Shown in pieces: positions 27,549 to 49,503 of a DNA stretch of 64,000 nucleotides. Both the position numbers and the translations under genes were made by a program. Below the pieces are notes generated by a model that was not told the DNA's origin, searched no databases, and saw only the letters and a list, made by a program, of their open reading frames with translations. The stretch is from Candidatus Nanohaloarchaea archaeon (lineage in GTDB: Archaea; Nanohalarchaeota; Nanosalinia; Nanosalinales; Nanosalinaceae). Each line of letters starts with the position of its first letter. Position 1 is the stretch's first letter. Location: assembly GCA_042218075.1 (NCBI GenBank), contig JBDGRK010000009.1, positions 18,136 to 82,135 of the forward strand. Reading direction: 5' to 3'.

Positions 27549-27644
27549 ACCCGAGAATCAATAATTCAAACCTTGCGTGCCACTCCAAAATCGCAGAAGT
27601 GATTTTGTGCGTTGGCAGAAACTCTTGGATAGAGTTTCGCGAAG

Positions 27645-27778
27645 AGCGTAACGAGTTGGACCGGCTGGGATTTGAGACCCCGAACTTCAGAAAGTTCGAT
27701 CATAAGAATGCATGGGTCCGGGAGACCCATGCCTTGCGTACCAACTCAGCGTAACGAGTTGGACCGGCTGGGATTTGA
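27645..27778. repeat. 31-bp direct repeat of the tRNA-Ala 3' end plus trailer (27645-27675 and 27748-27778)
   Basis: AGCGTAACGAGTTGGACCGGCTGGGATTTGA occurs twice with a 103-bp period. Confidence 0.95.
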
Positions 27779-27889
27779 ACCCAGGGCCTCTTCCAAGTTG
27801 GCGTCGAAGATCGGAGATCTTCTCGAACTCCCTTCACGGAGGAAGGAAGTGATGCCAAGGAAGCGTTCTGCCAGCTGAACTACCGGCCC
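27760..27889 (-). tRNA. tRNA-Ala(GGC) with a 57-nt intron at 37/38 (27796-27852)
   Basis: GGGCCGG acceptor with G3:U70, CTTCC-TTGGCA^T-GGAAG anticodon arm, GGTTCAAATCC T-arm; intron end CCAA-CT pairs with positions 32-35. Confidence 0.93.
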
Positions 27890-33886: not shown

Positions 33887-34074
33887 TGGTCCACCCGGGA
33901 TTCGAACCCGGGACCGCCGCCTAGCCTAAAACCGCGAGCAGAGCTCGCTACCGGTGAAACCGGTAATTGCGCTGGCTTAGCGTAACAAGCCTAGGCAACA
34001 CGCAGGCCTCTCGGCAAGAATTTCTGCGTGAGGTCCGTATAAGGACGGTGCTCTAACCCCTGAGCTAGTGGACC
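33887..34074 (-). tRNA. tRNA-Ile(UAU) with a 115-nt intron at 37/38 (33923-34037)
   Basis: GGTCCAC/GTGGACC-A acceptor, CCGTC-CTTATA^A-GGCGG anticodon arm, GGTTCGAATCC T-arm; BHB formed by CTTA:TAGG helix with bulges TA^C and CT^A. Confidence 0.9.
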
Positions 34075-34196
34075 TTTACAACGAAAAGTTTCACTGGTAA
34101 TCTAAAAAAGGCTTCCGGAATCCTGGGATTGGGCAAGACCACCTTAATAAATCTTCCAAATGATTATTACGCATAGAGATAGGTGAAATTCTACAA

Positions 34197-45640: not shown

Positions 45641-47161
45641 ATGAGCGCTGAAGCTGAAAGCCGGATAGAAGCTATTCTTGATCCGGGGAGAGAGGAAGAA
45701 ATGAACCGCGCCCTTGACAGACAGAAGGATAGAGTCAAGCAGCATGAACACGCGGAACCTGATGGTATCAATGTAGGACTTGAGGAAGAACTTTTTGTGC
45801 TGGATGGAAACGAGCCTGTGAATGAATCTACGAGAGATGAGCTTATAGGAAAGCTGGGAAAATGGCAGAAGATAGAAAATGTTGAACATGAACTGGGAGC
45901 AGCCATGGCTGAGATAGCTACTGAACCTGTCAGAGGTCTAAGCGCTCTGGACCAGCTCTATGAAGCTGCGATGATTCCCCAGGAAGAACTGATAAAGAGG
46001 GCGCAAAAAATGGGGCTGGAGATAGTCAGGCATGGAACAAACCCTGCACTTGACCTGCAGGATGTCGAGAGAACTACCGAGGATAAGTACAGGAAGGCTC
46101 CCAACACCTATGGCGAAATGCGCGTGGATGAATCCGTGGAATCAGAATTCGGTGAGGTAGATACACTTGATCCAAGGAACGAGGAGATGCCTGCGACTAT
46201 CTGCTCTTCACAGCTCAACATGCAGGCAGACAGTCTTGAGGATGCGGTGGAAAAGGCCAATATTGGATACGCTATATCACCTTACATTACCGCGATAAGC
46301 GGTAATTCAAGGCTACACGAACCAGGTGATCTCGGTCATCAGGACTCAAGGATTCCGCTCTGGGAGAGAGCTTTCGATATTGGAGAGTACGATAAAGATG
46401 AACTCGATATAGGCAGGATTGACAGATTCTTCCAGGACATAGATGATGTCTTCGAGAGGATGAGAGAGCAGCCCCGGATAATGAATAGCGCGGAAAACGA
46501 GGAATATGCACTGGATATCGCACAGGGAATGTTCTGGAAGGATGTCAGGATAAAGACTGTAGGCTCTGACGAGTCGGGATTGATCCTTGAGGACGATGTC
46601 GTTGTTGAATTCAGGCAGAACTCCACACAGCCAAGCCTGCTGGAGGACGTGGCCGTCCAGGCCTTCTACATGGGTAGAATAATATACGAGCAGGAGGAGG
46701 AACTGGGAGGAGCTTTCAGTCTTGATGATCTTCCCGATATCGACAAGGTCAACCATAACAGGCGTGAAGCCATGGCAAACGGTATGGAGACCCAGCTTTA
46801 CGACTGGCAGGGGAACAGGAGGGATGCCGGTGAAGTGATAGGGGAAGAACTGGATAAAGCCCGCGAAGGGCTTGAATACGCAGGTGTAGATTACAGCTCG
46901 GATTATATGGATATGGGGTATATTGAACTCCTGGAGCAAAGGCTTGAAACAGGTGTTTCACCATCAGATGAAGTTGTCGAAGAGTTCTACCGTAATCTCC
47001 TGGATGAGGGATACCGGGCAGATATGATGGAGGATCAGTATGAACTCCCTGAAAATTACGATAGTATAGACAAGGAGAAGAAGAAACAGGCAGCGGTGGA
47101 AGCAGTTAAATCTATAAGCATGAGACCTCCTGAAAATATTAGAGGAATAGAAGCTGCATGA
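45641..47161 (+). CDS. Glutamate-cysteine ligase / carboxylate-amine ligase (GCS2 family)
   Basis: VGLEEE, HELGAAMAE, SSQLNMQ, SGNS, WKDVR and VEFR motifs. Confidence 0.75.
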   Translation: MSAEAESRIEAILDPGREEEMNRALDRQKDRVKQHEHAEPDGINVGLEEELFVLDGNEPVNESTRDELIGKLGKWQKIENVEHELGAAMAEIATEPVRGLSALDQLYEAAMIPQEELIKRAQKMGLEIVRHGTNPALDLQDVERTTEDKYRKAPNTYGEMRVDESVESEFGEVDTLDPRNEEMPATICSSQLNMQADSLEDAVEKANIGYAISPYITAISGNSRLHEPGDLGHQDSRIPLWERAFDIGEYDKDELDIGRIDRFFQDIDDVFERMREQPRIMNSAENEEYALDIAQGMFWKDVRIKTVGSDESGLILEDDVVVEFRQNSTQPSLLEDVAVQAFYMGRIIYEQEEELGGAFSLDDLPDIDKVNHNRREAMANGMETQLYDWQGNRRDAGEVIGEELDKAREGLEYAGVDYSSDYMDMGYIELLEQRLETGVSPSDEVVEEFYRNLLDEGYRADMMEDQYELPENYDSIDKEKKKQAAVEAVKSISMRPPENIRGIEAA

Positions 47162-47919
47162 AAGTCGAGAAGCTTGGTGAAGGTGAACCCGAGATAGCTA
47201 TAAGCTATTTAATCCATGGCAATGAACCGTGTGGTTACCATGCCCTCCAGAGAATCAAGAGAGAATACAGTAACTTCAATAAGCCGGTCAAGCTTGTGCT
47301 CGCCAATGAGAAAGCCTTCAGGAAAGGCGAAAAATGTATAGATGAAGATCTCAACAGGTGCCTGAGAAACCCGGAAGGCGAGACTCACGAGCAGAAGGTG
47401 GCGAAAGATCTGAAGAGAGAGCTCGAGGGCCTTAAGGTTCTGGACTTGCATTCTTCCTATTCTTATCCTGAGCCATTCTCAATCATGACTGAGAATGACA
47501 GAGAATCAAGAAAGCTAGCCACGAAAGTCGATGCAGGTAAATGCGTAGACCTTAGCCAGGTCTACAGTTCACAGATGGAAAACTGTACAAGAGTCGCAGC
47601 TGAATGCGGTCATCTGGGATCGGAAAAAGCCATAAGAAACGCCTACAGGATAACAGTGAACTTCCTTAAAGCAGAGGGAGCTTTAGAAGGAGGTTTCGAA
47701 TCAGGGGAGCCTGAGGTCTTCAGGGCAACCGACAGCGTTGAAGGTTCAGGATACCAGTTCCAGGCCCAGAACTTCAGAAGAGTTGAGAAAGGAGAAATCT
47801 ATGCATTTAAAGAAGGAGAAGATCGTAGGGCGGAGGAGGATTTCTATCCTGTACTGATGTCAACCAACGGTTACGAAGACATGATAGGTTTCAAAGCAGA
47901 GAAGCTTGATCCCTACTAG
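47158..47919 (+). CDS. Succinylglutamate desuccinylase/aspartoacylase (M14-like) protein
   Basis: IHGNEPCG, DLNR, LDLHS and ECG motifs. Confidence 0.88.
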   Translation: MKVEKLGEGEPEIAISYLIHGNEPCGYHALQRIKREYSNFNKPVKLVLANEKAFRKGEKCIDEDLNRCLRNPEGETHEQKVAKDLKRELEGLKVLDLHSSYSYPEPFSIMTENDRESRKLATKVDAGKCVDLSQVYSSQMENCTRVAAECGHLGSEKAIRNAYRITVNFLKAEGALEGGFESGEPEVFRATDSVEGSGYQFQAQNFRRVEKGEIYAFKEGEDRRAEEDFYPVLMSTNGYEDMIGFKAEKLDPY

Positions 47920-47975
47920 ATTCCTGTATCTGTGAGAAATTAAATAAAAAAACCGAGATGCTTCATAGCCTAACT

Positions 47976-48048
47976 TCAGTAGTTCTTTGCGAAACATCTC
48001 TGCGAGATGGTTTCTCAGAAAAATTACACGTCAGTAATTTTTCGCGAA
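47976..48048 (-). repeat. Duplicated proS 3' end (FAKNY*) bracketing a 55-bp double-hairpin insert
   Basis: TTC GCG AAA AAT TAC TGA (48031-48048) and TTC GCA AAG AAC TAC TGA (47976-47993). Confidence 0.8.
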
Positions 48049-49503
48049 ATAGGCCCATCTCTTTGCTTCTTCCCCGCAGACTGCGCATTCTCCTTCAATC
48101 TTTTCTTCTTCATCCTGGATGGTTTCCGGCTTCGAGTTTTCGCGGAACGGGAGGATCACGATCTCGGCAGCGACCTCATCCTTGATCTCAGATTCACATT
48201 CCTCGTCCCCACACCACCTGCACCTGACGTAGCCTCGATTCTTTCCTATGGTGGCGAGTATCTCCTCCTTTGATTCCGCCTCCCGGATATTTGCTTCAAG
48301 GTAATCCGCAAGTGTGTTGTAGAGCGAATCCTGGATTGAACCAAGCAGGGAATCGACCTTCGGCCTCAGAGCCTCGTCGCTGAAGCTTTTCTTCTCGCCG
48401 TTGTCTCTCCTGACAGATGTAACTTCGCCATCTTCAACTTCATCAGGACCGATCTCCAGTCTCAGGGGAACGCCCTTGAGCTCCCACTCGTTGAACTTGT
48501 AGCCAGGAGTTCTATGATCTCTGTCATCCAGCTCAACTCTGAAGTCTTCCTCCAGATCTTCTCTAACCCGCTCCGCGTACTCGATCACTTCTGACCGGTT
48601 CTCCTCCTGGTAGATCGGCACGATCACCACCTGCACCGGTGCGATCGAGGGAGGAAGTCTCAAGCCATGATCGTCGCCATGGGCCATTATCAGTGCTCCA
48701 ATAGTTCTCCACGAAAGCCCCCAGCTGGTTGTCCACGCTGTTTTCTTTTCACCTTCTTCGTCCTCGAATTCTATACCGAACGCGCTGGAGAAGTGCTGGC
48801 CCAGGTTGTGGGAGGTGGCAGACTGTATGGATTTGCCGTCCGGCATCAGCGTTTCAATCGTGGTCGTGTATTTTGCTCCCGGGAACTTGTCGTGTTCAGG
48901 CTTGTATCCCAGGATAGAAGGTATTGCAAGATGATCCTCAACAATCTCCTGGTACTGCTCCAGTCTGAGCATTACCTCCCCATCAGCTGACTCCTCAGTG
49001 GCGTGAGCTGTGTGTCCCTCCTGCCACAGAAACTCTCTGGTGCGGAGGAAAGGCCTCGTCTGCGTTGCCTCCCATCTCACCACGTTTGCCCACTGGTTCA
49101 GTCTTAATGGGAGATCCCTGTGGGACCTGATCCAGTCACTCATCTTGTCCGCGATCACAAGCTCCGAGGTGGGCCTGACCGCCACCCTCTCATCCAGCTC
49201 ATCACTACCTCCATGGGTCACCCACGCCACCTCTGGATCGAATCCCTCTACAATCTCGTTCTCCTTCTCGAAGAAGGATTCAGGTATGAAAAGAGGAAAA
49301 TAGGCGTTTTCAACACCTGTCTCCTTTATCTTTTCGTCAAACTCATCCTTTATCGACTCCCAGAGCTTCATGCCGTAGGGCTTGAGTATCACGCTTCCCT
49401 TTACCGATGAGTGTTCCGCGAGTCCAGCCTTCCTTACAACTTCGGAGTACCATTCCCCGGGTTTCCTCTGCTTGTCAACTGTCACTCCCAGCTGCTGGGT
49501 CAT
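48031..49503 (-). CDS. proS: Prolyl-tRNA synthetase (archaeal/eukaryotic type)
   Basis: VRPTSE, PFLRTREFLWQEGH and SHNLGQHF motifs; C-terminal FAKNY. Confidence 0.98.
   Translation of the reverse strand: MTQQLGVTVDKQRKPGEWYSEVVRKAGLAEHSSVKGSVILKPYGMKLWESIKDEFDEKIKETGVENAYFPLFIPESFFEKENEIVEGFDPEVAWVTHGGSDELDERVAVRPTSELVIADKMSDWIRSHRDLPLRLNQWANVVRWEATQTRPFLRTREFLWQEGHTAHATEESADGEVMLRLEQYQEIVEDHLAIPSILGYKPEHDKFPGAKYTTTIETLMPDGKSIQSATSHNLGQHFSSAFGIEFEDEEGEKKTAWTTSWGLSWRTIGALIMAHGDDHGLRLPPSIAPVQVVIVPIYQEENRSEVIEYAERVREDLEEDFRVELDDRDHRTPGYKFNEWELKGVPLRLEIGPDEVEDGEVTSVRRDNGEKKSFSDEALRPKVDSLLGSIQDSLYNTLADYLEANIREAESKEEILATIGKNRGYVRCRWCGDEECESEIKDEVAAEIVILPFRENSKPETIQDEEEKIEGECAVCGEEAKRWAYFAKNY

Follow-up and report, generated by a model that had tools for sequence, protein, structure and literature searches.

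How can the last codons of an essential gene come to be present twice, with differences at silent positions only, while the gene itself remains intact? This question is raised by the 3' end of proS, the gene of an archaeal (E-type) prolyl-tRNA synthetase (ProRS), in a nanohaloarchaeal genome (1.10 Mb, 92% complete, labelled G000 hereafter) of which a stretch of 64,000 nucleotides, referred to as the window, was analysed. The gene, identified as an ORF with Pfam matches, lies on the minus strand at positions 48031..49503 and encodes 490 amino acids with the C-terminus KRWAYFAKNY*. Orthologues were present in 40 of 41 related genomes. Domains tRNA-synt_2b (PF00587), HGTP_anticodon (PF03129) and ProRS-C_1 (PF09180) were recognised and the match to the last of these reaches residue 490, in agreement with the initial annotation, according to which the gene end was duplicated and proS left whole. 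The functional importance which that annotation attributed to the terminal tyrosine agrees with the accessible part of a published report, where the conserved C-terminal Tyr of E-type ProRS is described as stabilising the active site (PMC12152171).

The end F-A-K-N-Y-stop had been described as occurring twice, 55 nt apart, with differences at three synonymous third positions and nowhere else, and both statements proved accurate. The working end (X1, 48031..48048, minus strand) reads TTC GCG AAA AAT TAC TGA. The second, untranslated copy (X2, 47976..48000, minus strand) reads GAGATG-TTTC GCA AAG AAC TAC TGA and lies in a frame different from that of proS (offset 55 = 3x18+1), its end copy proper occupying 47976-47993. 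On the minus strand the two copies, TTCGCGAAAAATTACTGA (48048-48031) and TTCGCAAAGAACTACTGA (47993-47976), are 55 nt apart from start to start, with 37 nt in between, and are identical at 15 of 18 positions; the differences are GCG/GCA, AAA/AAG and AAT/AAC, each at the third codon position. The likeness of X2 to proS continues upstream (AGAGATG), with a gap of 6 nt relative to the coding sequence, whose end is AAG AGA TGG GCC TAT TTC GCG AAA AAT TAC TGA. The stop codon is followed by cgt GTAATTTTTC TGAGAAAC CATCTC gca and then by X2, and X2 in turn by agttaggctat GAAGCATCTC gg TTTTTTT. When each gene's final 18-mer was compared with the 300 nt downstream of it, only 3 of 973 putative genes reached at least 15/18, typical scores being 10-11/18, and the same three, with no others, had a peptide-identical end copy. 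The degenerate 15-mer GCNAARAAYTAY plus stop (GCN-AAR-AAY-TAY-stop) occurred twice in the 1.10-Mb genome, both times at the proS end. The duplicated end is more than chance. Genome-wide, a blastn-short search for long-range duplicates of gene ends returned only noise and paralogues.

Three hairpins surround the stop codon. Hairpin 1, annotated from the outset as a perfect 10-bp structure at 48018-48043 with the working copy as one arm, is indeed 100% complementary over 10 bp (arms 48018-48027 and 48034-48043, the latter being the 5' arm within X1), and its 6-nt loop contains the proS stop codon. Its 3' arm, which includes a run of five T, owes its richness in T to being complementary to the Lys-Asn codons (AAA AAT). 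Among 972 genes tested, proS had the longest perfect stem spanning a stop codon, stems of at least 8 bp being found in four genes. The second hairpin reported for 47991-48014 does exist, but is imperfect: hairpin 2 (GAAACCATCTC-GCA-GAGATGTTTC, 47991..48014, minus strand) has arms of 9 nt (47992-48000 and 48004-48012) which are 89% complementary. Its 3' arm shares bases with the beginning of X2 and doubles as the 5' arm of a third and last hairpin (arms 47955-47964 and 47991-48000), so the two pairings, having one arm in common, are mutually exclusive. The 3' arm of this last hairpin (GAAGCATCTC, 47955-47964), the following GG and the T7 run (47946-47952) together make up positions 47946..47964 on the minus strand, which from fold and sequence are likely to be the final proS terminator. 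The minimum-energy fold of the 146-nt RNA around the insert (-42.7 kcal/mol, z = -3.61; 1 of 200 shuffles folds equally well) also ends in a hairpin and the T7 run. The hairpin module may serve as a compact transcription terminator or 3'-end protector, a role suggested by the abundance of T in the 3' arm, by the T7 run and by the fact that proS and its neighbour gene converge. A consensus terminator scan of 47500-48500, whose rules demand loops of 3-8 and at least three G-C pairs, gave no site. Rfam returned three hits at chance level for 47850-48150 at E <= 10 (10-15 bits, against cut-offs of 50-70), and inspection of the fold by eye revealed no obvious bulge-helix-bulge (two 3-nt bulges, 4-bp helix) at the junctions.

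The DNA between the two copies had been taken for a foreign insert. Our data contradict this assumption, since no other copy exists in the genome and the insert, taken as its reverse complement, matches the final 29 nt of proS with an alignment score of 32 (5000 shuffles: mean 11.9, maximum 27.5, none reaching 32). The alignment, GAGATGG-----TTTCTCAGAAAAATTAC against GAGATGGGCCTATTTCGC-GAAAAATTAC, contains a 5-nt gap. The insert derives from proS itself: of the 37 bases between X1 and X2, 25 belong to an inverted copy of the gene's end (X', GTAATTTTTCTGAGAAACCATCTC, 48004..48027, minus strand), delimited by this local alignment and by the fold. Within X', the segment 48004-48010 (CCATCTC) is the complement of GAGATGG in the coding sequence (48053-48059). 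As the insert aligns inverted to the proS end and X2 extends to GAGATG across a gap of nearly equal size, the terminus is present here as a direct-inverted-direct triplication, X1-X'-X2. A blastn-short search with the 146 nt around the insert against the 1.10-Mb genome found the query itself and otherwise matches of at most 22 nt, the best of them in the T-run part. Being present as a single copy, the insert does not resemble a MITE or a transposon, for which multiple copies, terminal inverted repeats and a short target duplication are expected. A self-inverted-copy score with p <= 0.01 was obtained for 7 of 51 related proS ends, and in most relatives the inverted copy measures just 10-12 nt, so that a self-derived insert of this length is peculiar to this genome.

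The tail copies themselves are not. In 51 genomes of the order, 53 proS ends were located, and the downstream DNA could be read at 52; the nearest proS showed 79% protein identity. Three states were distinguished among them: no hairpin (genus mates G004 and G001), the stop-spanning hairpin only (genus mate G002), and the hairpin together with tail copies. Extra copies of GCN-AAR-AAY-TAY-stop with at most one mismatch were found 43-170 nt downstream at 10 of the 52 ends, mostly in steps of 55-62 nt and as 2-4 units; this recurrence in the order is at odds with a one-off event, which the initial annotation had entertained. An eleventh end (L014) bears a more degenerate extra tail copy. The most degenerate copies in the tail arrays are the distal ones, array layouts and spacers differ among lineages, and the two members of a pair of tail copies differ nearly always at third positions or in the choice of stop codon. 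X1 is closer than X2 to the proS ends of the genus mates (1 versus 2 differences). A C/D-box sRNA, a translational bypass or read-through and a CRISPR-like array were dropped on sequence grounds, because stops vary (TAG, TGA, TAA), the copies are out of frame and the array spacers are mutually homologous.

Two further observations concern the material itself. The bin G058 contains three different full proS 3' ends on three contigs (L119, L120 and L121), one with no hairpin, one with the hairpin only and one with the hairpin and a second tail, and is probably a mixture of strains or species. At L015 (G016) and L018 (G009), the DNA right behind the proS stop is masked by runs of N, L018 displaying an exact tail copy 156 nt downstream, past the mask; unit counts at these two loci are therefore lower bounds.

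Conservation of the stop-spanning hairpin was evaluated by covariation. Units were chosen solely by Watson-Crick pairing at six invariant stem positions, which avoids circularity, and 14 of 64 units qualified. At four synonymous positions, 50 of 56 pairs were Watson-Crick, versus 33.8 +/- 3.1 with shuffled 3' arms (0 of 20000 shuffles reached 50), in a sample that spans two families and in a type of test that is inflated by relatedness. The covarying partners are AAT/ATT, AAC/GTT, AAA/TTT, AAG/CTT and TAT/ATA. The stop-spanning proS hairpin is a conserved structure. The non-coding hairpin copies are conserved as well, as seen in G035 and G031, which belong to the same genus and have the same gene downstream. 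Their ProRS are 84% identical and 86 of 181 four-fold sites agree; the 26-nt hairpins of units A and B are identical at 26/26 and 25/26 positions, their spacers at 22/30 and 26/33. The order of units is A-B-C-D in G035 and B-A-C' in G031, so the working end in one species is a non-coding unit in the other. With the order swapped and the hairpins near-identical, the arrays appear dynamic and their hairpins slow-evolving, owing either to selection or to exchange; recent exchange of the array could account for the conservation in this pair.

Pairing among these segments can also be read as a sign of regulation. GAGATGG, CCATCTC, GAGATG and GCATCTC can pair in two ways, the first with the second and the third with the fourth, or alternatively the second with the third. 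Furthermore, lineages in which X2 is intact tend to have an intact hairpin 1: where the extra copies are exact, 9-10 of 10 pairs of hairpin 1 are formed, against 7-8 at the degenerate ends (L014 and L133). In a regulatory switch, alternative structures of X', X2 and CCATCTC/GAGATG would couple the termination of proS translation to termination or read-through at the T7 run, and X2 would be kept by selection for pairing with X'. However, there is no co-directional downstream gene to regulate, the X2-X' pairing as read from the sequence is poor at two of the three variable positions, and lineages differ in layout. We regard such a switch as very improbable.

Could a mobile element have brought the second copy? 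The proS insert had been equated with a paired-hairpin element in the trailer of a tRNA-Ala gene, on the basis of a common frame. This frame, CAGAAA-N-TTTCGCGAA, has four occurrences in the genome. The three outside proS have a common module, composed of GTTACGCTC, a hairpin GAAACTCY/RGAGTTTC, AACGCAC, a hairpin AAAATCRC/GYGATTTT and GGAGTGGCACGCAA (in short form, GTTACGCTC ... AACGCACAAAATC ...), which is absent from the proS insert. The module opens the introns of tRNA-Ala(CGC) on contig C15 and of tRNA-Thr(CGT) on contig C36, and is found 3' of the tRNA-Ala(GGC) gene in the window. The letters common to the proS frame and the module are TTCGCGAAA, that is, the Phe-Ala-Lys codons, and TTTCTG (TTCGC-GAAA...TTTC-TG), and the trailing TG is not conserved among the proS hairpins of relatives. 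Because the family motifs are missing, the common letters are mostly codons and the TG is not conserved, the proS unit is not the tRNA-Ala trailer element. Separate motif searches gave a similar picture: the left motif, a stem-GTTACGCT(C)-stem' followed by ACGCAA, had 21 hits genome-wide and none in the proS 3' region, and none of 13 GAAAC-stem hairpins (GAAACTCY/RGAGTTTC and AAAATCRC/GYGATTTT searched) or five right-end GATGATCGAACTTTCWGAAGTTCG hits in the genome is located at proS.

The tRNA loci are nevertheless instructive, since the family copies and the tRNA-Ala 3' ends bracketed by duplications indicate that a target-duplicating hairpin process operates in the lineage. The tRNA-Ala(GGC) gene, with a 57-nt intron, lies on the minus strand at 27760-27889 (region 27652-27889) and its 3' end (about 28 nt) occurs twice. 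It is followed on its 3' side by GTTACGCT and a 68-nt two-hairpin piece (27680-27747), the second tRNA 3' end, and then a second GTTACGCTC module, the first hairpin of which is the 27616-27643 stem-loop of the trailer. At C15:64800-65300 (minus strand), tRNA-Ala(CGC) has a 226-nt intron opening with GACTGGTTACGCTC, and its 3' end is present three times, in the order copy 1, a 52-nt hairpin insert, copy 2, the 68-nt piece and a degenerate copy 3. The 68-nt pieces behind the two genes are identical at 67 of 68 positions, each being bracketed by copies of the tRNA 3' end. Outside this genome, members of the hairpin family, recognised by (CGACTG)GTTACGCTC at the left end and GATGATCGAACTTTCWGAAGTTCG at the right, are present in 10 of 40 relatives, none of them one of the four genus mates, with multiple copies in G007, G008 and G011. 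Five members were inspected (L182-L186, from G013, G005, G008, G007 and G011; left end CGACTGGTTACGCTC, right end GATGATCGAACTTTCWGAAGTTCG), and near-identical direct duplications of 15-20 nt flanked four of them. The duplicated targets were tRNA-Pro and tRNA-Leu 5' ends, the ribosome-binding site and start codon of a gene, and other DNA. At the fifth locus (L183), the member follows a tRNA-Gly 3' end and a second copy was not recognised. On the minus strand of the window, at about 33890-34075, a tRNA-like gene (5' GGTCCACTAGCTCAGGGG..., 3' ...GGTTCGAATCCCGGGTGGACCA) is split by about 110 nt with the stem-GTTACGCT-stem' CGCAA motif; it was missed by ARAGORN in default mode and by Rfam at gathering score.

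This family, its flanking duplications, the 68-nt member behind two tRNA-Ala genes with two (window) or three (C15) copies of the tRNA 3' end, and a hairpin of the dispersed family inside the argS insert described below all speak for a small non-autonomous hairpin element which inserts at gene or tRNA ends with a long (15-35 nt) target duplication and keeps the gene intact. The proS unit would then be either an ancient or diverged representative of the family or a cassette peculiar to proS that spreads by recombination through the conserved tail. Several features are difficult to reconcile with this explanation. The proS insert has neither the family motifs nor a second copy, it is an inverted copy of the target itself, and spacers vary between lineages. 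Fresh target duplications would be identical at first and would then decay at all positions, not just the synonymous ones. No Y1 transposase was detected (PF01797, 0 matches in the 92% complete G000), and the three tyrosine recombinase genes are all on other contigs (PF00589 hits on C13, C16, C37 and C19, none on C40). We rank this explanation second, as a possible but unlikely one.

No allele-level empty site was found among the proS ends of relatives or the metagenome loci. A scan of metagenome contigs for proS yielded 80 loci, the best with 72% protein identity over the last 200 residues, which implies that no close strain is among them. A duplicated tail was seen in none of the 78 loci with at least 100 nt downstream, of which 11 are nanohaloarchaeon-like (0/11) and the rest from other archaea and bacteria. 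Contigs of public runs from two studies cover 47600-48500 and 47600-48136 with no difference in either, and no joint skipping the 55 nt was seen in them; contigs drop rare variants, hence this has no bearing on absence. Distant att-like copies were sought with the degenerate 15-mer in 70 genomes of the order and rejected: the 12 non-proS places inspected were chance matches, as they had neither a complementary arm nor a proS-like upstream frame, and a control with the reversed pattern gave 11 hits.

Duplicated ends in other genes, for which the initial annotation had proposed a search, were recovered in the scan of 973 putative genes, which found argS and an htpX-like gene. Around hairpins, the genome thus contains duplicated ends at these two protein genes and at the two tRNA-Ala genes. 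In argS (C12:16950-18894, locus L149/L151), the tail G[I/V]EPLEEM* is repeated 125 nt downstream of the stop; the copies differ at 6 of 27 nt (five third positions and one Ile/Val) and are separated by a 116-nt insert with three hairpins, which carries the hairpin of the dispersed family. This argS is of a divergent type, 75% identical to that of G020, 69% to G009 and 67% to G033, and shared also with G015 (59-75% range); it is only 40-45% identical to four genus mates over the last 200 residues. Both argS types are present in G009 and G015. With respect to the downstream gene and to a conserved ATTATTAAC box, the stranded tail GVEPLEEM* has the position expected of a resident argS end, and two different working alleles have plausibly been joined here. 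In the htpX-like gene (C6:15307-15369, locus L150), ESTEV* recurs 27 nt further downstream, around a GAAAATT/AATTTTC hairpin. The two copies differ by a single synonymous change, and the second supplies GAGGTG six bases before the ATG of the next gene.

The same may have happened to proS. An incoming proS allele, or its 3' part, with a hairpin-bearing flank would have joined just upstream of the resident gene's last codons, X2 being the stranded tail of the displaced allele, so that the copies would differ as two functional genes do. This would fit the differences, synonymous in three cases out of three here and almost only at third positions or in stop codons among the copy pairs of relatives, as well as the argS precedent in the same genome, with its divergent type and a stranded tail at the position of the resident end. 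It would also fit the rearranged flank. A GCS2-family ligase gene (506 aa) and an AstE/AspA-family gene (253 aa) occupy 45641-47919, between a DEAD-box helicase gene and proS, in G000; both are absent in genus mate G002, in which 59 nt separate the end of the helicase gene from the stop codon of proS. Judging from this gene order, there is an indel directly at the proS 3' flank, and the DNA behind proS is a rearrangement junction. However, a mosaic or foreign origin of proS was rejected for want of any signal in segment-wise identity or in the tree. Of the three genus mates compared (G003 was left out), G004 and G001 had overall ranks within the first three and came first or nearly so in most of the seven 70-residue segments, the final one included, and G002 ranked eighth; in the tree the G000 ProRS is on a long branch, unresolved rather than misplaced. 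It is X1, not X2, that is nearer to the genus mates' ends, and random illegitimate joins predict neither the 55-62-nt period nor a self-derived insert. Joined alleles rank third, and we consider them improbable at proS.

The explanation ranked first is a locally generated, dynamic hairpin-tail repeat, probably acting as a terminator; it is adopted tentatively, at a little less than an even chance. Precedence is given to local origin because the insert is self-derived, single-copy and lineage-specific in sequence, and because the hairpin is a conserved proS feature. The 3' module consists of three copies of the gene's own terminus: X1, the working end; X', an inverted copy directly after the stop codon, which by pairing with X1 places the stop codon in a hairpin loop; and X2, an untranslated direct copy in the 5' arm and loop of the last hairpin, before the T7 run. 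Replication template switching, or a tandem duplication of a hairpin unit of about 55 nt, may have generated it on the spot. The module would represent one case of a tandem tail-hairpin repeat (2-4 units of 55-62 nt) behind proS in several nanohaloarchaeal lineages, whose units may expand, contract and reorder through unequal recombination. The synonymous-only divergence may find its explanation in the constraints on each copy: X1 would be free to change only synonymously, X' would track X1 via pairing, and the remaining copies would be either constrained by pairing or former working ends. On sequence grounds, an old duplication with a neutrally drifting second copy is firmly ruled out by the purely synonymous divergence. 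Some data do argue against local origin. If X2 were a neutral relic, non-synonymous changes would be predicted, and none was seen; X2 in the window has no complementary arm of its own (5/10 pairs), so that the pairing constraint on it is weak. In addition, the dispersed hairpin family flanked by target duplications, in this genome and in 10 of 40 relatives, means that a mobile mechanism exists in the lineage.

On a broader scale, one may ask whether gene-tail hairpin cassettes are a distinct kind of genetic element in ultra-small archaea, the proS, argS, htpX-like and tRNA-Ala cases all resulting from one undescribed process. We hold this to be doubtful. In such a process, the last codons of a gene would give rise to a unit through templated copying, both inverted and direct. 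Units would persist as hairpins spanning the stop codon and would accumulate at the working end, displacing older tails downstream, and recombination through the invariant tail would pass units from one genome to another. The mechanism would be related to that of the intron-like GTTACGCT family, whose members insert, with long target duplications, at the ends of tRNAs and genes. Whatever the origin, a second gene end with purely synonymous differences resembles recoding, an assembly error or a pseudogene to an annotator, and here it is real and recurrent. In this essential gene, the final codons also serve as an arm of a conserved hairpin, and the silent positions of these codons are consequently tied to bases outside the gene. 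In some lineages, small arrays whose units can swap coding and non-coding roles offer a compact system in which to follow gain and turnover of non-coding DNA in 1-Mb symbiont genomes, with genes left unbroken.

Among known systems, integrative elements restore, at attL/attR, the 3' end of the gene they target, and the old ends are displaced downstream and can stack. As with these elements, a copy of the gene or tRNA 3' end is supplied at proS and the target remains functional; unlike them, the 37 nt between the repeats contain no integrase and no element, PF00589 hits lie on other contigs and the distant pattern hits have no hairpin arm. Direct-inverted-direct triplications arising by two-step replication template switching are known from large eukaryotic rearrangements and from quasi-palindrome mutations in bacteria. 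To our knowledge they have not been described as a conserved gene-tail module. The proS order X1-X'-X2, with the middle copy inverted, is as in such triplications. REP/BIME and MITE-like repeats are short hairpins located just after stop codons, singly or in clusters, and are thought to stabilise or terminate transcripts. Whereas REP/BIME are dispersed multi-copy families with a sequence of their own, the proS repeat is confined to a single locus and made from the coding end; neither a PF01797 (RAYT) match nor any dispersed copy was found. Palindromic REP/BIME and MITE-like repeats behind stop codons are treated in the accessible part of Delihas 2008 (PMC2229807). Closer in architecture is the GTTACGCT hairpin family of tRNA introns and trailers, in which, as at proS, the target end is followed by a loop, a short inverted copy of the target end, further hairpins and a second direct copy; this family differs in being multi-copy and spread across genera, and its signature motifs are missing at proS.

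Among the papers found on long target duplication, palindromic repeats and integration in Nanohaloarchaeota, none was seen to describe gene-tail hairpin arrays in Nanohaloarchaeota, which is no proof that such a description does not exist. The available part of Furuta et al. 2010 (PMC2853133) describes insertion with long target duplication, in which direct repeats of unique target DNA surround an insertion without a transposase, and one such repeat overlaps the last 15 bp of a gene. The inserts in that part of the report are kilobase restriction-modification gene units between near-identical repeats of more than 30 bp (PMC2853133), whereas proS has a self-derived insert of 37 nt, a repeat of 18-25 nt (18 nt, or 25 with the gap) with synonymous-only differences, units stacked in arrays, and no allele-level empty site found. 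Of the published categories, insertion with long target duplication, as far as the available part of that report goes, comes closest to the proS locus.
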